Shown here piece after piece: positions 2,949 to 58,834 of a stretch of 64,000 bases of DNA. The notes below the pieces were generated by a model. That model was not told the DNA's origin. It did not search any database and saw nothing but the letters and a program-made list of their open reading frames with translations. Position 1 is the stretch's first letter; every line of letters starts with the position of its first letter. The translations under genes and the position numbers were made by a program. Origin of the DNA: Bacteroidota bacterium (GTDB taxonomy: Bacteria; Bacteroidota; Ignavibacteria; UBA10030); the NCBI GenBank assembly GCA_035291905.1, contig DATDRF010000297.1:14-64013 (forward strand), given 5' to 3'.

Positions 2949-5438
2949 ATGAAAAAGAAAAGAACAAGAACGACAGCACAATCCAGTCGGCCCGGTCTGA
3001 AAGCCGCAGAAGCCCACCGACCACTCGAACCCGAGCAATTGAGGTGGCAATGTGTTCCCGAGTCGCTCAACGTCAAGACAACTGACGATGTTCCGGCGGC
3101 CCGCGACATCATCGGCCAGGAGCGTGCTCTCCGGGCTCTGCGAGTGGGCCTGGAGATGACGCATTACGGTTACAACATCTTCGTGACGGGACTTCCGGGA
3201 ACCGGGAGGACAACCACGATCAAGAGGCTTCTGAAGGAATTCTCCGGACACAAAGCCGAGCTGAAGGATCATTGTTATGTGTACAACTTCAGAAACCCGG
3301 ACATGCCGGTCACGTTGCAGCTTCCAGCAGGACAAGGAATGTCACTTCGCCAGGACATGAATTCGTTCATCAATGATCTTTTCGTGAACATCCCGGCGTT
3401 ATATGAGAGTCAGAGATACCAGGAGGCCCGCAAGGCAACCCTGCAGCACTTTCAGGAGAGGCAAAAGAGCGTCCTTCAGGATTTTGAGAAGCGCGTCAAA
3501 GAGAAGGGTTTCGACCTGGTTCAGGTACAGGTGGGGAACATGATGCGGCCCGACGTCGTGCCGGTTCTGAACGGTCAGCCGGCAAACCTCGATCAAATGG
3601 AGGCGCTGGTCCAAAAAGGAGAACTGTCAAAGGAGCAGCTCCAGGCGATGCGCGAAACGCAGGCCGACCTTGAGAAACAAATGTCGATTGTCTTTCGCGA
3701 ACTGCGGAACATTGAGAAAAAGGTCCAGCAATCCATCGTCGAGCTCGAGGAACGATTGGTCATGCCCATCGTGGATGAGGGGATTGATGTTCTGAAGGCA
3801 ACGTATGAGAGTGAAAAAGTCCAGGTTTATATATCGGATGTGCGTGAAGACATAAGGAAGAACCTTGACCGTTTCCGCAAACAAGTTATTGTCATGCCCC
3901 AGCAGGAAGAAGAGGAGGAAGAAGAAGAGGAAGACGAATTCGTGGAGTATCAGGTGAATGTGCTTGTTGACAATTCCGAAATGGAGACGATCCCGATTAT
4001 CATCGAGACGAATCCAAAGTACAAGAACATCTTCGGCACCCTCGAACGCGAGCTGGAGAAGTCAGGCGTATGGCGCACCGATTTCATGCATATCAAGGCC
4101 GGCTCGCTTCTTCGGGCTGACGGCGGGTATCTTGTGTTGAATGCTCTTGACACGCTGGTGGAGCCGTGGGCGTGGCAGGACTTGAAACGAACGCTTCGGA
4201 CGGGAAAGATGGAGATCCATACGTACGAACCGACGTTCAATTTCTCCCCGACGGGCATGAAGCCCGAGGCGATTGATCTGAATGTGAAAGTGATCATGAT
4301 CGGCGATCCCGACATCTACAGTCTCCTGTACGACAGGGACGAGGATTTCAAAAAAATCTTCAAGATTCGAGCCGACTTTGACTCCGAGATGCCGAAAAAC
4401 GATGACAGCATCACGCAATACGTTCGATTCATCAAAATGGTCTGCGACGACGAGAAACTGATTTCTTTCGATGCCACAGCGCTCGCGCAGATTATCGAGT
4501 TTGGTGTTCGTCTCTCGGGGCAACAAAAGAAGATCTCGACGCGCTTCAATATCATTGCAGATGTCGCCAGAGAGGCTCATTACTGGGCACTGAAGGCCAA
4601 GAAGAAAGTCGTAACCGACGAATTCGTGGAGAAGGCAATTGAAGAGCGCCTCTACCGCGTGAAGCTGATCGAAGACAAAGTGCAGGAACTGATATCTGAC
4701 GGTACGTACCTGATCGATACAGACGGATCGGCGGTCGGACAGGTCAACGGACTTTCGGTCTATGACACGGGAGAACATGCATTCGGCAGGCCGTCTCGCA
4801 TAACTGCCAGAACATCGTTGGGACGGTCGGGGGTGATCAATATTGAGCGGGAAGCCGAATTGAGCGGGCCGACACACAATAAAGGCGTGGCAATCCTGAC
4901 GGGGTACCTCCGCAGCAAATTTGCCCAGCGAATTCCGCTGGTTATGGATGCCAGCATTACGTTTGAGCAGTCGTACGGCGGCATTGACGGTGACAGCGCA
5001 TCCTCAACGGAGGTTTACGCAATTCTTTCGAGCCTTGCGGAAATCCCCCTGCGGCAGGACCTGGCAGTAACGGGCTCCGTCAACCAAAAGGGAGAAATAC
5101 AACCTATCGGAGGAGTAAACCTGAAGATCGAGGGCTTCTATGACTGCTGCAAAGCACGCGGTCTTACGGGGAGGCAGGGTGTTTTGGTGCCGACAAAGAA
5201 CGTCGGGGAGTTGATGTTGAGGGAGGAAATTGTTGAGGCGGTTAAGAAAAAACAATTCCACATTTACGCGATTGAAACGATCGGGCAGGGGATCGAAGTT
5301 CTCACGGGAATCAAGGCGGGGAGTCAGGCAGCACATGGATCGTTCGAAAGGGGGACTGTTTTTGACCGGGCCTCGCGCCGGTTACAGGAATTCGCCCGGC
5401 TCTGGCATTCGTATGAAAAAGCGGGAAAAGTCGGTTAG
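2949..5438 (+). CDS. Lon-like protease of the COG1067 / LonB-LonC type (AAA-like domain plus S16 Ser-Lys protease domain)
   Basis: Walker-A-like GLPGTGRTT, with Arg where the P-loop Lys is expected. Glu-run insertion QQEEEEEEEEEDEF. C-terminal S16 catalytic motifs IDGDSAS (Ser) and GGVNLKIEG (Lys). Confidence 0.8.
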   Translation: MKKKRTRTTAQSSRPGLKAAEAHRPLEPEQLRWQCVPESLNVKTTDDVPAARDIIGQERALRALRVGLEMTHYGYNIFVTGLPGTGRTTTIKRLLKEFSGHKAELKDHCYVYNFRNPDMPVTLQLPAGQGMSLRQDMNSFINDLFVNIPALYESQRYQEARKATLQHFQERQKSVLQDFEKRVKEKGFDLVQVQVGNMMRPDVVPVLNGQPANLDQMEALVQKGELSKEQLQAMRETQADLEKQMSIVFRELRNIEKKVQQSIVELEERLVMPIVDEGIDVLKATYESEKVQVYISDVREDIRKNLDRFRKQVIVMPQQEEEEEEEEEDEFVEYQVNVLVDNSEMETIPIIIETNPKYKNIFGTLERELEKSGVWRTDFMHIKAGSLLRADGGYLVLNALDTLVEPWAWQDLKRTLRTGKMEIHTYEPTFNFSPTGMKPEAIDLNVKVIMIGDPDIYSLLYDRDEDFKKIFKIRADFDSEMPKNDDSITQYVRFIKMVCDDEKLISFDATALAQIIEFGVRLSGQQKKISTRFNIIADVAREAHYWALKAKKKVVTDEFVEKAIEERLYRVKLIEDKVQELISDGTYLIDTDGSAVGQVNGLSVYDTGEHAFGRPSRITARTSLGRSGVINIEREAELSGPTHNKGVAILTGYLRSKFAQRIPLVMDASITFEQSYGGIDGDSASSTEVYAILSSLAEIPLRQDLAVTGSVNQKGEIQPIGGVNLKIEGFYDCCKARGLTGRQGVLVPTKNVGELMLREEIVEAVKKKQFHIYAIETIGQGIEVLTGIKAGSQAAHGSFERGTVFDRASRRLQEFARLWHSYEKAGKVG

Positions 5439-14121: not shown

Positions 14122-17100
14122 GTGTTTTCTGCCATCATGATCTCATCCATTAAAGATCTTCTATACTCATCAGAGCCTTTCCGTAAGTTTGCAGAATCCG
14201 TCAAGGAAAGCCGAAATGCGCTTCGATTGGAAATTTCCGGCGTTAATGGGTCTTTGATGGCATTTGTTGCCGACCTTTTGGGTGAGCATTTTTCCAACGT
14301 CATCCTCGTAGTTTCGACAGATGATCGTGCGGAGCAGCTTCGGGATGATTGTGCGCTCGTTACACCGGGAAGAAAGGTGAACCTCTATGCCCACGCTGAA
14401 CACCACTCTGCCACTACCCTTGATATGAGCGGACCCGTTTCCGTGATGGAGTCTCTCCATTCGCTTGTGAGAAATGAAGCAGGCATCATGATTGCTTCGG
14501 CGGAAACGGCAGCGAGCCTGCTTCCGCCTCCCTCTGGTTTCCGCGAACGGGCCATCATACTGACATCGGAAGTTGAATACCCGTTTCAGGGTCTGGTGGA
14601 CAAGCTGGAAGAATGGAAGTTCGAGCGCAAGGACTTTGTTGAGGGGTACGGGGATTTTGCCGTCCGTGGAGGGATTCTGGATGTGTTTCCTTTTGTCGGA
14701 GAGCATCCGCTGCGGATTGAATTCTGGGGGGACAGGATCGAGTCAATACGCGAATTCGAGCCGCTTTCGCAGCGTTCCATCAGGGAGCTTCACTCTGCAA
14801 ATATCGTTGCGGGATTTCCCGATGTCGCTGATCGGGCAGACCGAACCTCGACCGTTTTTGACTACCTGCCGGCCGGCACAGTTCTCCTGGTTGAAGAGCC
14901 GGTTCTCTGCGAGCGGGAGGTTGAAGAGGTCATACTCGAGGGCGTCAAGGGCGTTGTTCGCTGGGGCGACATTCTCGAACGGAGCGCAAGGTTTCCCCGC
15001 ATAGTTCATTCAAGCCTTTCCGCTCCCGACGCGGACATTCAATTTGGCTCATCTCCCCAACCGGCATTTCACGGAAGCATCAAGCTCCTTGTTGAAGATC
15101 TCCGGCGCGAGAAGGTACGGTCGTTCAGGCAAATTATCGCCTGTGATTCCGCCGAAGAGCTCACGCGACTGCAGGACTTACTCGAAGAGGAGATCACCCG
15201 AACCGAAGAGAGTGACGGGGGGGATTGGGAGTTTCCGGAACTCAATCCCGAGGGGTTTCACGGCGGATTCGTGTTTCCTGCCGCTTCGATTGTTCTTTAT
15301 ACCGAGCACGAAACATTCGGGAGGCTTAAGAAACGCGGGACCCGAAGGCGGCCGCGGTTCCGCGGATTCAGCCAGCGGGAGGTGTATCGACTGAAGAAAG
15401 GTGATTTCGTGGTCCATGCTGATTACGGCGTGGGAAGGTTCGCTGGATTGCAGACGATCAAGGTCCGGGGGAATGATCAGGAAGTGATGAAGATACAGTA
15501 CGATGAGGATGACGTTCTCTATGTCAACCTCAATTTCGTCAACAGTGTTCAGAAATATTCGTCGCAGGAAGGTCATGAGCCGAAACTGACCAAGCTCGGC
15601 ACACCGCAGTGGGATCGCCTCAAAGCGCGCGCCCGCAAGCGCATTAAAGACATTGCACGCGGGCTGATTCGACTCTACGCCCAGAGAAAGCACGAGCCCG
15701 GGTTTGCGTTTTCCCCCGACAGCCATTGGCAGAAAGAGATGGAGGCTTCGTTCGTCTATGAGGATACTCCCGATCAGTCAACGGCGACAGAGGCGGTGAA
15801 GGCGAACATGCAGGAGGCCGTCCCCATGGACAGGCTTATCTGCGGTGATGTCGGTTTTGGCAAGACGGAGGTTGCGGTTCGGGCCGCGTTCAAAGCTGCT
15901 CTTGACGGCAAACAGACCGCCGTTCTGGTCCCCACAACGATCCTGGCGCAGCAGCACTATCAAACCTTTCTGGATCGCCTTGAACGCTATAGTGTTCGTG
16001 TTGCCTCGCTGACGCGGTTCAGAGGGAAGAAGGAACAAAAAGGCATACTCGGAGATCTTAAGGAAGGGTCTGTGGATATTGTGATCGGGACGCACCGGCT
16101 GCTGTCGAAAGACGTGGTGTTCAAGGACCTTGGGCTTCTGATTATCGATGAAGAACACCGCTTTGGCGTTACGGCAAAGGAAAAGCTTCGGCAGATGCGC
16201 GCATCGGTCGACACCCTGATGCTCACGGCAACACCGATCCCCCGGACGCTTCAGTTTTCGCTCATGGGAGCCCGGGATTTGTCGATCATCAATACGGCGC
16301 CGCGTAACCGGCTTCCGATCATCACGGAAATATGTGAATTCGATCTCGATCTTATCCGGGAGGCGATTCTCAAGGAGCTTCACAGGGGCGGGCAGGTGTA
16401 TGTGATTCATGACAGGATCCAGACAATGGATCTGGTGGTCCAACAATTGAAGACAAAGGTCCCCGAAGCGCGGTTCCATTCCGCTCACGGACAAATGAGG
16501 GGTCACGAGCTCGAAAAAACGATGATGGCGTTCCTTGAGCGCAAGTACGACGTTCTGATCTGCACAAAGATCATCGAGTCCGGCATTGACATCCCCCGTG
16601 TCAATACCATTATTATCAACCGTGCCGACCGGTTTGGCCTGGCTGAGTTGTATCAGCTGAGGGGAAGAGTAGGGCGGTCGAATGTGCAGGCGTACGCATA
16701 CCTGCTTACGCCGCCCATAGCCACCCTGCCGCGAGTTGCACTGCAGCGACTCCAGTCAGTTCAGGAGTTCACAGAGCTGGGTTCGGGGTTCAACCTTGCA
16801 TTGCGCGACATGGAAATACGTGGTGCCGGGAACCTGTTGGGGGCGGAACAGTCGGGATTCATCATGGAAATGGGATTTGAAATGTACCAGCGCGTGGTTG
16901 AAGAGGCGGTGCGGGAACTGAAAGACGAAGAATTCCAGGGGGTATTTGGCGAAGAAGGCAGACAGACGGCCACTCCTCAACCGGAGACCATTCTTGAATC
17001 GGATCTGGAAGCCCTTATCCCGGACATTTATGTCGAGTCGAGCCAGGAGCGACTTGATATCTACAGGCGACTCTACCAGGCAAAAACGTTGAACGACATT

Positions 17101-17493
17101 CAGATGCTTGGCGAGGAACTGAAAGATCGGTTTGGAGATTTTCCCGAGGAGGTGGATCTGCTGCTTCGGCAGGTCGAGGTTAAGACGCTTGCATCGCAAC
17201 TGCACATTCCGCGCGTGGAACTCTCGGGCTCGCAGCTTCTGTTTTTCCTTCCTCCTTCAGCTGATTCCGTCTTCTATGGAACAACAGAGAACATGGAGGC
17301 GCCCTTTCAGGCTATCATGGGGTTGCTCAGCTCATCGAACGAGATCAAGTTTCAGCTTCAGCAGGAAGGCCCTCAGTTGAAACTGAGAATGACGATGAAG
17401 GCTGGAAAACTGCCCGCAGAAAGACTTCGGGAGGGGTCCGAAATTCTCGGGAAATTTGTCACTGCGGTCCAAAAGAAAACCCCGGGATCATGA
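14122..17493 (+). CDS. mfd: Transcription-repair coupling factor Mfd
   Basis: 1123 aa. Helicase motifs GDVGFGKTEVA and DEEHRFGV. TRG and C-terminal domains present, with UvrB-homology N-terminal modules. Confidence 0.95.
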   Translation: MFSAIMISSIKDLLYSSEPFRKFAESVKESRNALRLEISGVNGSLMAFVADLLGEHFSNVILVVSTDDRAEQLRDDCALVTPGRKVNLYAHAEHHSATTLDMSGPVSVMESLHSLVRNEAGIMIASAETAASLLPPPSGFRERAIILTSEVEYPFQGLVDKLEEWKFERKDFVEGYGDFAVRGGILDVFPFVGEHPLRIEFWGDRIESIREFEPLSQRSIRELHSANIVAGFPDVADRADRTSTVFDYLPAGTVLLVEEPVLCEREVEEVILEGVKGVVRWGDILERSARFPRIVHSSLSAPDADIQFGSSPQPAFHGSIKLLVEDLRREKVRSFRQIIACDSAEELTRLQDLLEEEITRTEESDGGDWEFPELNPEGFHGGFVFPAASIVLYTEHETFGRLKKRGTRRRPRFRGFSQREVYRLKKGDFVVHADYGVGRFAGLQTIKVRGNDQEVMKIQYDEDDVLYVNLNFVNSVQKYSSQEGHEPKLTKLGTPQWDRLKARARKRIKDIARGLIRLYAQRKHEPGFAFSPDSHWQKEMEASFVYEDTPDQSTATEAVKANMQEAVPMDRLICGDVGFGKTEVAVRAAFKAALDGKQTAVLVPTTILAQQHYQTFLDRLERYSVRVASLTRFRGKKEQKGILGDLKEGSVDIVIGTHRLLSKDVVFKDLGLLIIDEEHRFGVTAKEKLRQMRASVDTLMLTATPIPRTLQFSLMGARDLSIINTAPRNRLPIITEICEFDLDLIREAILKELHRGGQVYVIHDRIQTMDLVVQQLKTKVPEARFHSAHGQMRGHELEKTMMAFLERKYDVLICTKIIESGIDIPRVNTIIINRADRFGLAELYQLRGRVGRSNVQAYAYLLTPPIATLPRVALQRLQSVQEFTELGSGFNLALRDMEIRGAGNLLGAEQSGFIMEMGFEMYQRVVEEAVRELKDEEFQGVFGEEGRQTATPQPETILESDLEALIPDIYVESSQERLDIYRRLYQAKTLNDIQMLGEELKDRFGDFPEEVDLLLRQVEVKTLASQLHIPRVELSGSQLLFFLPPSADSVFYGTTENMEAPFQAIMGLLSSSNEIKFQLQQEGPQLKLRMTMKAGKLPAERLREGSEILGKFVTAVQKKTPGS

Positions 17494-41653: not shown

Positions 41654-42732
41654 TCAACGCAAAGAAAGCGAGAATTGCGATTCCTGGGGACGAAGGAAGG
41701 ATTCGGTGGAAAGGCGAACAGGGGTTTCGTTCAAGCGATACTTTCGGCAACCTGCCTGAAAGAGATTCTCGATTGTATCGGCGATCGGGCCTTCGCCCTT
41801 CATTCGCTTTCCGAAGTCCGATTCGGAAAGCTTTCCCCCTCGGACGGACCGAATATGACTCACGACTTTGTTGAACTTCTCGGGGTATTCGCGCTTGAGC
41901 CACTCGAGGAAGAGATCCTTGAGTGCATAGGAAAGCCGCACCGTTGTTTGCCCCGCATGACGTGCGCCGCTTTCTGATGCCTGCCTGAGAATTTCTGGGA
42001 TCTCGCTTTCTGTCAGTCCGGGTATTATCGGTGCCACATTGACACCGACGGGAATCCCGTTCGCGGCAAGAATTTCCACTGTTTCCATGCGCTTTCGGGG
42101 AGCCGAAGCGCGCGGTTCCAGTTTTCTTGCCAGATCCTGGCGGAGCGTTGTGACGGTGATAATGACGAAGAGAAGATTGGTGGCGGCAAGTTCTTTGAGA
42201 ATATCGACGTCGCGCTGAACAAGGGCGTTCTTGGTAATGAGCGAGACCGGGTTTCGGAAGCGCAAGAATATTTCGAGGCAGCGGCGGGTGATCTTCAATG
42301 TCCGTTCCGCAGGCTGGTAGCAATCAGTATTGCCTGAAAAAACCACCGTCTGGGGTTGCCATGAAGGCTTGCTGAATTCAGCCGCAAGGAGCTCGGGTGC
42401 TTTGAGCTTCACCATGATCTTTGTCTCAAAATCGAGGCCGGAGGAGAAGCCAAGGTATTCATGTGAAGGGCGCGCGTAGCAAAGATGCAGCCGTGCTCAC
42501 AGCCTCGGTAGGGGTTGATGCTGTACGTGAAACCGATGTCGGGGCTGTCGTTTTTGGAGAGAATGGAAAGAGAGCGGTCGACATAGAAGCGCGTGGGGAC
42601 TTTTTGCCCGGGCTCGGGCAGCTCAAAGTACTCCGCCAGATCAGGAGGCGGCGATTCCACTTTGAGTGATTCAAAGCGGTTGGGAGGATTGAATCCCGCC
42701 CCGCGACCGATGAATGGGCGAGATTCACTCAT
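41654..42732 (-). pseudogene. Radical SAM 'DNA repair photolyase' (SplB-like, COG1533 family) gene disrupted by a 1-nt frameshift
   Basis: The N-terminal ORF 42409..42732 reaches ...YRGCEHGCIF and then goes out of frame. Re-inserting one T in the T-run near 42480 restores [39 protein letters not shown]..., which continues into ORF 41654..42415. The start overlaps the polB-like stop by 8 nt. Confidence 0.75.
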
Positions 42733-45031
42733 GGGGCGACGGTGCGGAAGCGAACGGTTTGGCCTGGACGCGTTGGGATCTGGTTGATTTGCGGGGTTTC
42801 AATGGAGGGGGAAGAAAGAGCTCCTTGAGGCGATCGACCGTATATCCGAATGGCGAGAGCAGCGACTCGATCGCTTTCAGTGTCAGTTCGGTGTAAAAGT
42901 CGATATCGTAGCCATCCTCAAAGGCATACAAGGCAATCGGCTTTGCCTTTTCCGGTTTTTTCTTTCCCGATTGGTCGATGAGAATGTACTCGATGGTTTC
43001 TCCGGCCGCGAGATGGACCCCCATTTCTTCAATAAGTCCCGCAACGACAGCGCTGACGCTTTTGTTGGTATATTCATTCGCCTCTTTTGTAATGTGCCGC
43101 CGCATGACAAGCTCCATCGGATTCACTTTTCCGCTTCTGAGCATTGCAACGGCGTTGCGGCCGATGTCGAGGAGCTCGGGGACCAACGTCTCTACATCGG
43201 CCGCCGTGCGCGCAGGTGCCATGCGGTCGAACATTGCCCTCTGCATGGTCTTGATGAACGGGGGAGTGTCCCGGCGGCGTGTTTCGAGTCCGCGCACTTT
43301 AAAATCGCCGTTGCGGTACCACCCTGCATACCGGTTGGCCGTCGTGATGAGGGGATCCTGCTTTGACGCCGGGAAAAGGATCCAGTTGTAAATTCCTTCC
43401 AATGAAATATCGATTCCCGTGCGTGCCGCGATCTCGCGGCATAACTCTTCATATTCCTGCTCGGAAGTGCCGGGCTTTTTCAGCCAGACGCAATCGATGA
43501 TGGCGTGAAGCATTCGGAAGCCGTGCTGCTCAGCAATCTCCTTTGCCGTTAAAATGGAGTCGCGCGAAAATGCGTTCACGGACTCGTGTGCTTCGATTCT
43601 TCCGAAACGTGCGTTCTTGTATCCGAGATATCCGAAACAGCTGACGAGCATCCATTTGAGCGCATTCTGGCGCCGGTCGTATTTACGGAACAGAGCGTCA
43701 TCCCTCCCCTTATAAAATCGTTTGAGTCTTTTATAATGAGACCGTTTTTGCACCACCGATCGAAGTGTTGCCGGGACTATTCCCTCGCGCCGTTCACAAA
43801 TGGTATACCCGAGCTCGGGGACGGCCGAGTTTGAACAGCAACGGCAATTGACCGTTTCCGGGGAAACGTTCTTTTCGACCATGATGGTGGGATACATCGA
43901 AACGAAATCGAGCTCGGCGACTTCTTCGTGGTACCCAAGAGGAGGATTGAAAATAAGACCGCCCCTGTCTGCCATCAACAATGTGGAGGCCGATTTGAAG
44001 TCTTCCGGTTCCCGTTTTTTGGACGGAATAAGGTACCGGTGGCTGTGCGCCCAAGAGAGCTGCAGGGACGACATCGATGTGCCGATGCTGACGCGGGCCT
44101 GGCGCTGAACGGGAATCTGTGTCAAACGGGCGAGCTCGAAGACTCCGTCAAGGTCGGCCTCGCCGAACGTGAAGGAGTTCTGCTCATCGAGGTGCCAGCG
44201 GCCGGCGAGCTCAAAAGCCCCGTCTTTATGGACGATTTTGCCGTACTGGAAAAAACTCGATTCCCTGGTTCGGAAATACGGTGTCTGCTCATCGCGGTTC
44301 AGGAGGAGGGGAATATTGTGACGTGCAGACAGAGCCGTCAGGTGCGGCAAAATGATCGAATCGCCGTATTCCGTCAGAACAATATCGGGGTCGCAGCGAT
44401 GAAGATGCCAGTTGAGCGTCTCCAGCACGTCACGCGGGTTCTCTTGCTCCAGCGAATATGTCTGGCCATCGTAGCTGACCTCAAGCTGTAGGTGCTTGCG
44501 ATATTTGGGAGGGACAAAGTTGTTCCCGTTTCTCAGTCGTAGCGTTGAAAGCGGCGGAACCTCGTATTCCATTGCTTCATGATGATCGTTGATGGCCCAT
44601 CCGACGAGACGGCTGCGATGATCGATTTCGTAGTCACCGTAAGCAAGAGGAAAAAGAGCCGTTTCATACAGAAACAACTGAGGGACAAGGAGATCCGAAT
44701 CAAAAAAAGCAAAGTGAGGGAAAAATTGTTCAAAGGATCGGACGACAGATGAAAAGCGGGTCGGGTTATGAACGGAAATTTGTAGAACGTCCCATGATTC
44801 ATCGGAGTACAATTCCTTGCGCGTGGTGATTGAAACAGTAAGCCGTGTGTCGCAGCGGGTGGCGAGTGTGGAGGCGCGCTTCATATCCTGCGGACTCAGG
44901 TGAAGAAAAAACGAAGGAAGAAAGGGAACGGTGCAGCGATGCTTTCTTCCTTCGCGGTCGATAAGCCACACGACCATGCCGTCTGTCGAAGGATAAGCGT
45001 CAAAGAGCCACCCCGAAACGACATTGCTCAT
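42725..45031 (-). CDS. Family B DNA polymerase paralog (E. coli Pol II-like) with degenerate 3'-5' exonuclease motifs and a degenerate polymerase motif C
   Basis: Motif A LDFVSMYPTIM aligns with Pol II LDYKSLYPSII. Motif B KWMLVSCFGYLG aligns with KIIMNAFYGVLG. NRYAGW and RGLETRRRDT align with KKRYAGL and KGLETVRTDW. N-terminal similarity to Pol II: GWLFDAYP...FLHLSP against GFILTRHW...AFIP. The exonuclease and motif C substitutions are detailed in the findings. Confidence 0.85.
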   Translation of the reverse strand: MSNVVSGWLFDAYPSTDGMVVWLIDREGRKHRCTVPFLPSFFLHLSPQDMKRASTLATRCDTRLTVSITTRKELYSDESWDVLQISVHNPTRFSSVVRSFEQFFPHFAFFDSDLLVPQLFLYETALFPLAYGDYEIDHRSRLVGWAINDHHEAMEYEVPPLSTLRLRNGNNFVPPKYRKHLQLEVSYDGQTYSLEQENPRDVLETLNWHLHRCDPDIVLTEYGDSIILPHLTALSARHNIPLLLNRDEQTPYFRTRESSFFQYGKIVHKDGAFELAGRWHLDEQNSFTFGEADLDGVFELARLTQIPVQRQARVSIGTSMSSLQLSWAHSHRYLIPSKKREPEDFKSASTLLMADRGGLIFNPPLGYHEEVAELDFVSMYPTIMVEKNVSPETVNCRCCSNSAVPELGYTICERREGIVPATLRSVVQKRSHYKRLKRFYKGRDDALFRKYDRRQNALKWMLVSCFGYLGYKNARFGRIEAHESVNAFSRDSILTAKEIAEQHGFRMLHAIIDCVWLKKPGTSEQEYEELCREIAARTGIDISLEGIYNWILFPASKQDPLITTANRYAGWYRNGDFKVRGLETRRRDTPPFIKTMQRAMFDRMAPARTAADVETLVPELLDIGRNAVAMLRSGKVNPMELVMRRHITKEANEYTNKSVSAVVAGLIEEMGVHLAAGETIEYILIDQSGKKKPEKAKPIALYAFEDGYDIDFYTELTLKAIESLLSPFGYTVDRLKELFLPPPLKPRKSTRSQRVQAKPFASAPSPHE

Positions 45032-45306
45032 GTGCGCTCCTCGGGAGCAGCAAGCGCGCCGGCCTGAACAAGCCGCCGGCGCAGTTCTTTGATGGTCTTT
45101 CCCTGCTCAATGATGATCGACATGATAATGCTCTCAAAGGGAATGGCGCGCATGGCGTAAAAGTTTGTGGCGAGATGACGCTTGGCGGCGCGGAAGACCT
45201 CATCGAAGATCTCCTGGTCCTCCAATTGCAGGCCGCGGCGGAATTTCGACCAGCCGGCGATCTCACTGTCGATGATGTTGGTGAACGTCGGTACGGTGCG
45301 TCCCAT
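45028..45306 (-). CDS. Small hypothetical protein (about 92 aa) between the imuA-like and polB-like genes
   Basis: ATG at 45306 preceded by AGGAG-N9. Its stop overlaps the polB-like start (ATGA). The longer upstream extension (TTG at 45468) would overlap the imuA-like gene by 206 nt and is disfavoured. Confidence 0.4.
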   Translation of the reverse strand: MGRTVPTFTNIIDSEIAGWSKFRRGLQLEDQEIFDEVFRAAKRHLATNFYAMRAIPFESIIMSIIIEQGKTIKELRRRLVQAGALAAPEERT

Positions 45307-45991
45307 GATTGTTTTCTCCTTTCGGTGATAGAAGAGATGAAGGTTGAGGCTCAAGTTGAACGGCATAGTGATGGTGTTCATCCTCTTCGAGGCGATAGAC
45401 ACGATCCACGGATGATGTGAGTGTCTGAGAGAGGCCGTTACGCTCTTCGGGCCAGACGGTCCGGTCAACGGATGCGATGAGAACGGAAATGCCGCGCTGC
45501 TTCATTTCTTGGAGGGCAATGAGAACGCGGCCGAGAATCTGGCGGACCTCACGCAGCGGCGCCTGCTCGTCGTACAGTGTTTCGAGCGGATTAAAGATCA
45601 TAGCGGTGGTGGCGCCTTTGGCGGCAAGAAAAGCGGGGAGGCGCCGTGTGAGCGCCTGCTCCATCTGGTAGCAGGTGAATCCGCGGGAGATGAAGATGCG
45701 GTTGAGCAGTTGTGCGGGGTCGATCCGATGTTCCCGGGCAAAGCGGGAGATCAGGTGGACGTTGAAACAGTTCCCGCCGTCAACGACGGCGATGGAGGAG
45801 CCGTTGGCCAGAGCAACGGAGGCCATGGTGAGGGAAAGTGTGAAGACGGCGCTGTCACCGTGCAGCAGGTACACCTTTCCGGGCGGGTGGGTGAAGGCAT
45901 GAATGAGGTTCTCAGAAGAGCGGATTATTGCCGTGTCTGTGTCTGCGGCAGGGGATAGTAACTGACGGGCTTGAACTGGAAATGGGGGCAC
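45263..45991 (-). CDS. ImuA/SulA-like protein (RecA-fold with degenerate P-loop)
   Basis: RecA-like topology without a canonical Walker A: GKVYLLHGDSAVFTLSLTMASVALANGSSIAVVDGGNCFNVHLISRFAREHRIDPAQLL..., then TAMIFNPLETLY. The ORF-track TTG start at 46018 falls inside the predicted -10 hexamer, so the in-frame GTG at 45991 is proposed as the start. Confidence 0.55.
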   Translation of the reverse strand: MPPFPVQARQLLSPAADTDTAIIRSSENLIHAFTHPPGKVYLLHGDSAVFTLSLTMASVALANGSSIAVVDGGNCFNVHLISRFAREHRIDPAQLLNRIFISRGFTCYQMEQALTRRLPAFLAAKGATTAMIFNPLETLYDEQAPLREVRQILGRVLIALQEMKQRGISVLIASVDRTVWPEERNGLSQTLTSSVDRVYRLEEDEHHHYAVQLEPQPSSLLSPKGENNHGTHRTDVHQHHRQ

Positions 45992-46014: not shown

Positions 46015-46044
46015 ACAATATGACATTTTTGTCGTATTGTCAAG
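46015..46044 (-). promoter_or_regulatory. Sigma70-like promoter (TTGACA-N17-TATTGT on the minus strand) overlapped by a 26-bp near-perfect palindromic operator candidate
   Basis: Plus strand 46015..46040 reads ACAATATGACA-tttt-TGTCGTATTGT, with arms matching 10 of 11. On the minus strand the -35 TTGACA is at 46043..46038 and the -10 TATTGT at 46020..46015, separated by a 17-nt spacer. Confidence 0.4.
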
Positions 46045-46107
46045 AAATGAAAACGACAATTATGTCGCTTCACTCACAGTGAAGAAGTCCCTTCTAGGCC
46101 AAAAACC

Positions 46108-57913: not shown

Positions 57914-58834
57914 TTATTCCCTGATATTATCCAACCGACGGATGGTTAACGGTAACTCGTCTTCCTGTCCAACAATCGACAGGTTCGGAATCTTCTTCAG
58001 CTGCGGGGAGACTTCTGCAAGACTGCCCGGAACCGTGATCTTCTTCTTCCTGTCGACTAAGTGTTTTAGCTGAAATCCGTTTACCGCCGAATGTGCATTC
58101 GGATCGTTGTGAAAGACAACGAAGGTCTTCCTCACTGAGCGTTGCACGGATTCAATCCGTTTGACAAAATCTTCAAGCTCTTCCGGTGAATAATTGTAAT
58201 GATACCGCTCCTGGACTCCGCCCCTGTCCCACGAGGCGCTGTTTCTCCCCATCAGCCGGAAGTACGCCACGTCATCCCATGCCTCGTTCGTCATCGGCAT
58301 ATGGTTCTTGATTGCGGGAAGATCGACATTGATCAGGTGAAGGTTCTGATCCCGCAGGAACTGAAACGCCTCCGCATGGTTCCATGAATCGTGCCGCAGC
58401 TCGATGAACATGACGAATGATCCAAATGTTACACCGAGTTTCTTCAGGTACTCTTCGTTTGGCTTTGTGCGCTGGAAGGAATGAGGGAACTGAAGAACCA
58501 GTCCTCCCATCACTCCTGCCTTGAGCAGCGGTTCAAGCATGGCGTGAACCGTTTTTGCATCTTCGGCCGTCCCGTTTCTCTTGTGCGTAAAAGCCTGAAA
58601 GAGCTTCGCCGTGAAAACGAAATTCTGGTTGCCCGAAACGTCCGCTATCCAACGGCGGATCTGATCCGGGCTCAAAGCCAGCGTGTAGAACGTGGCGTTG
58701 ACCTCCACCATGTCAAAGAACCGGCTGTAGTACTGGAGCTTCCGGAATCCTTTTCCTGCGTCGGCAGGATAGAACGTTCCCTCAAACGAGGGCAGCATCC
58801 AACCTCCCATCCCGATCAAAATTTCCGGCTTCAT
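57914..58834 (-). CDS. DUF72 (UPF0759) family protein
   Basis: IGMGGW...FYP...LQYYSRFFDMVEVNATFY pattern typical of DUF72. Confidence 0.75.
   Translation of the reverse strand: MKPEILIGMGGWMLPSFEGTFYPADAGKGFRKLQYYSRFFDMVEVNATFYTLALSPDQIRRWIADVSGNQNFVFTAKLFQAFTHKRNGTAEDAKTVHAMLEPLLKAGVMGGLVLQFPHSFQRTKPNEEYLKKLGVTFGSFVMFIELRHDSWNHAEAFQFLRDQNLHLINVDLPAIKNHMPMTNEAWDDVAYFRLMGRNSASWDRGGVQERYHYNYSPEELEDFVKRIESVQRSVRKTFVVFHNDPNAHSAVNGFQLKHLVDRKKKITVPGSLAEVSPQLKKIPNLSIVGQEDELPLTIRRLDNIRE

Follow-up and report, generated by a model that had tools for sequence, protein, structure and literature searches.

An 'inactivated' family B DNA polymerase, PolB2, has been reported to be associated with an inactivated RadA and with arCOG07300, both in archaea and in several bacteria, sometimes together with lexA (Makarova 2014; PMC4104785). 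The bacterial group G2 was later defined and found to be nested in archaeal B2 (Kazlauskas 2020; PMC7544198). Exo III is missing altogether in B2/G2 (PMC7544198), and a 2026 survey describes the DnaQ-like domain as inactivated throughout the G2/PolB2 polymerases (PMC12926913). PolB2 reached bacteria by horizontal transfer, and the only gene order found there is iRadA-PPB2-PolB2; the study that renamed the two partners iRadA and PPB2 also described the 'MGRT' arm of PPB2, the enrichment of lexA, SRAP and DUF72 genes near the operon, and a modelled complex of the composition PolB2-iRadA-(PPB2)3 (Timinskas 2025; PMC11791011). Here we analyze a stretch of 64,000 nt (hereafter, the window) of contig DATDRF010000297.1 (GCA_035291905.1) from a Bacteroidota bacterium of the lineage Ignavibacteria; UBA10030, in which an open reading frame (ORF) of 768 amino acids and the two genes upstream of it very probably form such an operon.

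The sole experimentally characterized PolB2 relative is Dpo2 of Sulfolobus islandicus and S. solfataricus. Dpo2, with a motif C described as 'HxxxD', is a robust polymerase without detectable exonuclease, and with IID in this motif it is as active as the replicase (PMC8764526). The same triplet is found in motif C of S. islandicus PolB2 (401-IID-403; PMC11791011) and in the polymerase of our locus. Dpo2 inserts poorly opposite lesions, and efficiently extends mismatched or lesion-paired ends (Feng et al.; PMC8764526, PMC7390963). It is induced by damage and is needed for damage-induced mutagenesis (PMC7390963).

Our locus resembles the Dpo2 system in its IID motif C, the D(K/R) motif, the absence of Exo motifs and the association of three genes. 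However, Dpo2 is the smallest PolB2, with a largely decayed exonuclease domain, whereas the polymerase described here is full-size, and the archaeal system is regulated by Orc1-2 and not by an S24 repressor. With the bacterial G2 'PolB2 mutasome' the locus shares the single-Asp HxxxD motif C, the invariant D(K/R), an unconserved Exo I and a missing Exo III, the order iRadA-PPB2-PolB2, a PPB2 starting with MGRT, an iRadA without ATPase motifs and, in relatives, LexA-like, SRAP and DUF72 neighbours. It differs in having no lexA-like gene nearby, an apparently degenerate clamp motif and a (frameshifted) radical SAM gene after the polymerase, none of which we consider essential. ImuA-ImuB-DnaE2 is a comparable damage-regulated, multi-protein assembly for translesion synthesis (TLS) that contains a RecA-family component and small accessory subunits. 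The same is true of Pol V (UmuD'2C-RecA), to which the PolB2 system has been likened (PMC11791011). In both, however, the catalytic subunit belongs to family Y or C instead of family B, and the RecA-like partner in the PolB2 system is an inactivated RadA/Rad51 homologue.

The best explanation of the locus, which we consider very likely to be correct, is a bacterial PolB2 (G2) of archaeal origin in an iRadA-PPB2-PolB2 operon, acting as a proofreading-less, probably active and damage-regulated TLS extender. Its odd active-site motifs are published hallmarks of PolB2/G2, a family already known, and the novelty of the features is therefore low. They had been flagged in an earlier note, which gave exactly the same coordinates for the ORF and described the protein as a 'Pol II-like' polymerase, possibly proofreading-deficient, whose motif C is altered. 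As a whole, that observation is partly confirmed and its interpretation partly supported: the Exo residues are indeed absent and motif C is of the HxxxD type, but the placements of all three Exo motifs and the affinity to Pol II have to be revised.

The polymerase active site

PolB2 was aligned in four ways: by phmmer against the PDB, by BLASTP against E. coli Pol II (sequence taken from NC_000913), with a family profile of 70 sequences against the PDB, and with the same profile by hhalign against Pol II. Conservation was counted in 109 family representatives, clustered at 50% identity. The Pfam model DNA_pol_B (PF00136) matches residues 322–721 of the protein (E value 3.5e-34), and the placements of motifs A, B, and C (Table 1) agree across all four alignments.

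In motif C, H509-A-I-I-D513-C lies opposite Y-G/I-D-T-D-S/G in the HMMER alignment to Pyrococcus PolB, in the BLASTP alignment and in the hhalign alignment to Pol II. Ile511 takes the place of the first Asp of DxD; the second Asp, which binds metal, persists as D513. This pattern extends through the family: D513 is present in all 109 representatives and H509 in 101, and position 511 is occupied by I, L, V, M, Y, or N and in none of the 109 by Asp. The three alignments bear out the claim that motif C holds a single acidic residue. The adjacent VWLK, which had served as the anchor for that claim, reflects a coincidental shift of two residues that would need a gap, as the hhalign alignment of motif C is ungapped; the conclusion itself is unaffected.

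The catalytic Asp of motif A was correctly said to be kept, with D375 found in 109/109 representatives and the steric-gate residue Y380 in 105/109. For motif B, which had been called retained as well, this is true of the Lys (K459, 108/109) but not of the Asn and Tyr, and the motif is not fully canonical: KxxxNSxYG has become KWxLV(S/T)(C/S)FG, with Val in place of Asn in 104 and Phe in place of the second Tyr in 107 of the representatives. Ahead of motif A, the group-specific D(K/R) loop reads D355-R356-G-G, where D355 is invariant (109/109) and position 356 is Lys in 56 and Arg in 47 representatives; in the AlphaFold2 model it is preceded by a short strand and a helix (residues 348–354). In published models, the D(K/R) motif touches the N-terminal arm of PPB2 and the preceding loop touches iRadA (PMC7544198, PMC11791011).

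Substitutions at such positions raise the question of catalytic competence. A catalytically dead pseudo-polymerase, serving as scaffold or regulator together with iRadA and PPB2, would account for the missing first Asp of motif C, the lost Asn and Tyr of motif B and the vanished Exo site; the RadA partner is itself inactivated, and inactivation is what was originally predicted for PolB2 (Makarova 2014; PMC4104785). We regard this as unlikely, because the 109 diverse representatives show little or no variation at D375, D513, K459, and Y380, which is not expected without catalysis, and because Sulfolobus Dpo2 with IID matches the replicase in activity (PMC8764526). By analogy, PolB2 is most likely catalytically active, with the metals held by D375 and D513. 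The earlier note had left open an error-prone or a catalytically impaired polymerase; given the conservation of these four residues, an error-prone or TLS polymerase fits better than an impaired one.

Several homologues, among them P0127, P0158, P0164, P0169, P0179, and P0193, reach approximately 1250–1300 amino acids. Their alignment with the query is interrupted at residue 466, within motif B, which looks like the result of intein insertions.

The exonuclease domain and the affinity of the polymerase

The AlphaFold2 model of PolB2 (predicted local distance difference test score 93.2, predicted template modelling score 0.90) matches 9N and KOD PolB along the full chain in Foldseek (template modelling score 0.73–0.75). 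The exonuclease fold is therefore largely retained, with its catalytic residues gone. The Pfam exonuclease model gives no match to PolB2 even at E ≤ 10, and none of the 109 representatives has both DxE and the Asp of Exo II in the corresponding alignment columns.

For Exo I, hhalign sets Pol II PPLKWVSIDIETT against P159-PLSTLRLRNGNN, which places SIDIETT opposite RLRNGNN. The two columns that replace the catalytic Asp and Glu (R167 and G169) vary within the family, and the PPL ahead of them is conserved. A placement at residues 141–147, given by the HMMER profile, was dropped in favour of residues 165–171, because P159-P160-L161 corresponds to the PPL found just ahead of Exo I in Pol II (PPLKWVSIDIE). 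At the Exo II column, residue 227, most representatives have Leu, Ile, or Val, and 5/109 have Asp.

The canonical YxxxD of Exo III is absent. Relative to Pol II, approximately 70 residues are missing between GRWHLD and FELARL, which are 16 residues apart in PolB2 versus approximately 85 in Pol II, and hhalign pairs the YNLKD of Pol II only weakly with FTFGE (residues 287–291). The single-sequence phmmer alignment offered D282 as the Exo III Asp. We rejected this pairing as an end-of-alignment artefact, since residues 279–282 form a β-strand in the model, the profile leaves the stretch unaligned, Exo III is reported to be missing, and GRWHLD in our reading is similar to GRxxxD, a strand motif of canonical PolBs.

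The loss of the Exo carboxylates put forward in the earlier note holds in these alignments, where no canonical Exo I, II, or III set is found: profile alignment places neither the DxD of motif C nor the Exo carboxylates at their expected positions. The segments named in support of that loss were misplaced to different degrees. LFLYETA (residues 119–125), taken for Exo I, lies approximately 45 residues off according to the profile alignment and hhalign, and aligns with a conserved motif of the N-terminal domain, which reads RYLMERF in Pol II and, in Pyrococcus PolB, KRYLIDKG. DSIILPHLTA, taken for Exo II, is two residues off, as NVVQFDLRML pairs with YGDSIILPHL two residues upstream, and FELARLTQ, taken for Exo III, is off by approximately 10 residues and pairs with LLERATVN downstream of Exo III.

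The affinity to Pol II suggested in the same note is contradicted by model scores, profile ranks, the Foldseek result and the iRadA-PPB2-PolB2 operon. PolB2 could in principle be an E. coli Pol II-type SOS polymerase whose proofreading site was secondarily lost: both are bacterial family B polymerases with the same overall fold and an SOS-linked repair role (probable in the case of PolB2), hhalign aligns them with a probability of 99.8% over 657 columns, and a hairpin before Exo I is common to the two. BLASTP finds approximately 22% identity over 330 residues, a distant relationship. We nevertheless consider such an origin very improbable. The NCBIfam Pol II models NF004420–NF004422 score 35–66 bits, against cut-offs of 570–1435, whereas two archaeal-type 'type B DNA-directed DNA polymerase' models of NCBIfam reach 405 and 393 bits, which falls short of their equivalog cut-offs. 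In the search of the family profile against the PDB, E. coli Pol II (2.4e-33) ranks far below the Thermococcales polymerases (3.6e-112 for Thermococcales PolB), Pol alpha, and Pol delta, and the 50 best Foldseek matches do not include it. Moreover, D(K/R), HxxxD and the operon with iRadA and PPB2 are B2/G2 features (PMC7544198, PMC11791011), whereas Pol II has a YGDTD motif C, intact DxE, D, and YxxxD Exo motifs, a single subunit and a C-terminal QLGLF.

The operon, its promoter and its surroundings

The genes for iRadA, PPB2, and PolB2 lie on the same (-) strand in this order, with overlapping ends and PolB2 as the last, and are probably translationally coupled. The overlap between iRadA and PPB2 amounts to 44 nt at the start of PPB2 (45263–45306). 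An alternative TTG start for iRadA, at 46018, falls within the -10 hexamer of the promoter.

PPB2 begins with MGRTVPTF. The Pfam search gave no match for PPB2, but the identical protein in assemblies L004–L006 is annotated as PF26485/DUF8156, and it is 69% identical to PPB2 of locus L002. As the Pfam search of iRadA yielded nothing significant (Rad51, E value 0.098), a profile of 47 locus-derived iRadA homologues was used against the PDB; this retrieved the core of P. furiosus RadA (E value 6.4e-11), followed by DMC1 and Rad51. No N-terminal HhH domain is present. As read from the sequence, the Walker A motif GxxxxGK(T/S) is absent, with 'LLHGDSAVFTLS' at that place (outside the HMMER-aligned stretch), and so is the Walker B Asp, with 'MIFNPLE' at its place.

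The tail of iRadA, 'HQHHRQ...', is conserved in relatives. This seems to be due to the overlapping MGRTVPTF codons in another frame, which leaves the true C-terminus of iRadA in this clade uncertain.

An exhaustive HMMER scan of 50%-identity cluster representatives returned 819 proteins at E ≤ 1e-30, and a pattern scan with one genome per species found a PolB2 relative encoded in at least 594 genomes. Close relatives (67–99% identity) occur in Ignavibacteriota/Bacteroidota metagenome-assembled genomes. Loci were compared for the 80 best of these at least 594 loci, together with assemblies of the same organism; the 80 come from Ignavibacteriota, Bacteroidota, Chlorobi-like bacteria, Nitrospirota, Chloroflexota, Acidobacteriota, Armatimonadota, Thermodesulfobacteriota, Sumerlaeota, Elusimicrobiota, and others. 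Of the 80 related loci, PPB2 was detected in 72 and iRadA in 62, always upstream and in the same order. Most of the loci without them end too early upstream; a few have full upstream flanks (5 kb in L013 and L024) and show neither iRadA nor PPB2 beside PolB2. Two copies of PolB2 seem to be present in one metagenome-assembled genome, on the contigs of L025 and L042.

Upstream of iRadA we identified a sigma70-like promoter, TTGACA-17-TATTGT (46043..46015). A perfect palindrome, CGACAATTATGTCG, is located just upstream of its -35 element at 46054–46067 and is the sole perfect CGACA-N4-TGTCG in the window; a second palindrome with one mismatch lies in the promoter spacer (46021–46034). Paired palindromes of this type, 31–33 bp apart and with an A/T-rich N4, recur in Ignavibacteria/Bacteroidota-type relatives, either upstream of the operon or beside a gene for a LexA-like protein with HTH_3 and S24 domains. 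The arrangement fits repressor control, with the two palindromes as candidate operator sites. As neither of the two published Bacteroidetes SOS motifs, GGA-N5-TCC and CTAA-N5-TTAG (PMC8565304), corresponds to this palindrome, another LexA-like lineage may use it as its operator.

In L013, both palindromes are found directly upstream of the polymerase gene (4914–4958). Across the window, 8 palindromes with one mismatch were counted versus 2.8 expected. The other near-matches, such as the one at 17022 in ORF 14122–17493, which we take to be an mfd-type gene, are consistent with chance and were not retained as operators.

Genes for an HTH_3+Peptidase_S24 (LexA-like) protein, SRAP, and DUF72 flank the operon of a 70%-identical relative, and a LexA-like match is present in 26 of the 80 related loci. 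Of the three, tblastn detected only DUF72 in the window, approximately 13 kb from the operon. That the polymerase belongs to a mobile element (a casposon, plasmid, phage, or primer-independent PolB) and not to the chromosomal repair enzymes is hardly credible: the horizontal acquisition of bacterial PolB2 (PMC11791011) and the intein-sized insertions in several family members would agree with it, but the window is uniform in GC content, housekeeping genes lie on either side (gliding-type ABC transporter, peptidase, P-type ATPase), the 70%-identical relative shows the same synteny, and neither an integrase nor Cas1 nor terminal repeats were observed around the operon.

Table 1. Positions in the window of the operon genes, PolB2 motifs, promoter region and neighbouring genes.
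Feature	Position	Strand	Details and basis
PolB2 (bacterial G2 group, very probably), family B DNA polymerase	42725..45031	-	ATG overlaps PPB2 stop (ATGA)
PPB2 (arCOG07300 / Pfam DUF8156), 92 aa	45028..45306	-	starts MGRT; AAGGAG precedes
iRadA, inactivated RadA/Rad51-like, 242 aa	45263..45991	-	GTG start at 45991; profile match to RadA
Exo I-equivalent strand RLRNGNN (residues 165–171)	44519..44539	-	Asp to R167, Glu to G169; hhalign vs Pol II
Exo II-equivalent YGDSIILPHL (residues 222–231)	44339..44368	-	catalytic Asp to I227; phmmer, profile, hhalign
GRWHLD strand (residues 277–282, highly conserved) and remnant FTFGE (residues 287–291)	44159..44203	-	hhalign, conservation
DRGG, group-specific D(K/R) motif	43958..43969	-	D355; conservation, model secondary structure
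Motif A LDFVSMYP (residues 374–381)	43889..43912	-	catalytic D375, steric-gate Y380; conservation and alignments
Motif B KWMLVSCFGY (residues 459–468)	43628..43657	-	Lys kept, Asn to Val, Tyr to Phe; conservation, profile alignment
Motif C HAIIDC (residues 509–514)	43490..43507	-	PolB2-type HxxxD; alignments and conservation
Putative damage-regulated promoter and two palindromes	46015..46067	-	conserved paired sites in relatives
Radical SAM gene, PA0069 family (SplB-like DNA-repair family)	41654..42732	-	start overlaps PolB2 stop
DUF72 homologue	57914–58834	-	49% identical to DUF72 beside L002 operon

The radical SAM gene that follows PolB2 starts 8 nt before the PolB2 stop. It is frameshifted by a 1-nt deletion within 42475–42492, inside the CxxxCxxC codons, which may reflect a real strain variant or a pseudogene: the deletion is identical in L005, the gene is also split in L004, and it is intact in L006. 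An intact copy scores 466 bits against NF033668. The gene is also found directly after PolB2 in 9 related loci, a count that includes organisms represented by more than one assembly, and no mention of such a gene beside PolB2 is made in PMC11791011.

The C-terminal tail of PolB2 is disordered and contains QAKPF (residues 756–760, at 42752–42766), where close relatives have the β-clamp-like sequences QIPLF, QLTMF, QADLF, and QELPLF. In Chloroflexi-type loci the iRadA C-termini end in a QLRLF-like sequence, which is not the case in this locus. The clamp-binding motif appears to be degenerate in this organism.

Between motifs A and B, PolB2 carries a Cys cluster, CxCC-x12-C (residues 396, 398, 399, and 412; 43796–43846). 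It is all-or-none in the family, with all four Cys in 95 and none in 8 of the 109 representatives. C399 and C412 align with a Cys pair of Thermococcales PolB, which forms a disulfide there, and a position after motif A is also that of the CysX cluster of Pol epsilon. The cluster is not mentioned in the cited PolB2 literature. A Cys4 metal site (Zn or Fe-S) in PolB2, combined with an apparently undescribed LexA-like operator and a presumably co-transcribed radical SAM gene, is a tentative reading of these sequences that we hold to be rather doubtful.

Proposed function of the operon

Since Dpo2, with the same IID, is an active exonuclease-free extender of mismatches and lesions, the locus likely encodes a damage-inducible translesion 'mutasome'. 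In our proposal, an S24-type LexA-like repressor bound to the two palindromes flanking the -35 element would keep the operon off; upon DNA damage the repressor would be released and the operon expressed. PolB2 and iRadA, one copy of each, would then assemble with a trimer of PPB2 into a single complex, as suggested by the published models, and PolB2 would extend mismatched or lesion-paired primer ends without proofreading, which is the extender step of translesion synthesis. Polymerase activity, the absence of 3'–5' exonuclease activity, the extender role, complex formation, and damage induction are proposed here by analogy with Dpo2 and from the published modelling.

Several points weigh against this view of the locus. 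The nesting of the polymerase inside archaeal B2 is suggested by its motifs, the operon, and the model scores. For bacterial PolB2, the cited literature holds no biochemical or genetic characterization, and its presumed activity, fidelity, and induction by damage are carried over from the Sulfolobus enzymes, in which the exonuclease domain is far more reduced. No lexA-like gene was found by tblastn in the window, which consequently offers no repressor candidate, and CGACA-N4-TGTCG is unlike the published Bacteroidetes SOS motifs (PMC8565304). Finally, neither iRadA nor PolB2 of this locus has a canonical QLxLF β-clamp motif.

For annotation, the analysis gives names to genes that are unnamed or listed as 'DNA polymerase domain-containing protein' in public records, and which can now be designated iRadA, PPB2, and PolB2. 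With an intact operon, a clear promoter, and two candidate operator sites, the locus is a compact test case for a bacterial branch that is widespread (at least 594 species genomes from many phyla), experimental study in the cited literature being confined to the archaeal one. Should a redox-active cluster be bound at the Cys4 site, a bacterial TLS extender would gain a layer of metal or redox control. More generally, the features that once earned PolB2 the label 'inactivated' are now understood as signs of a specialized translesion extender.

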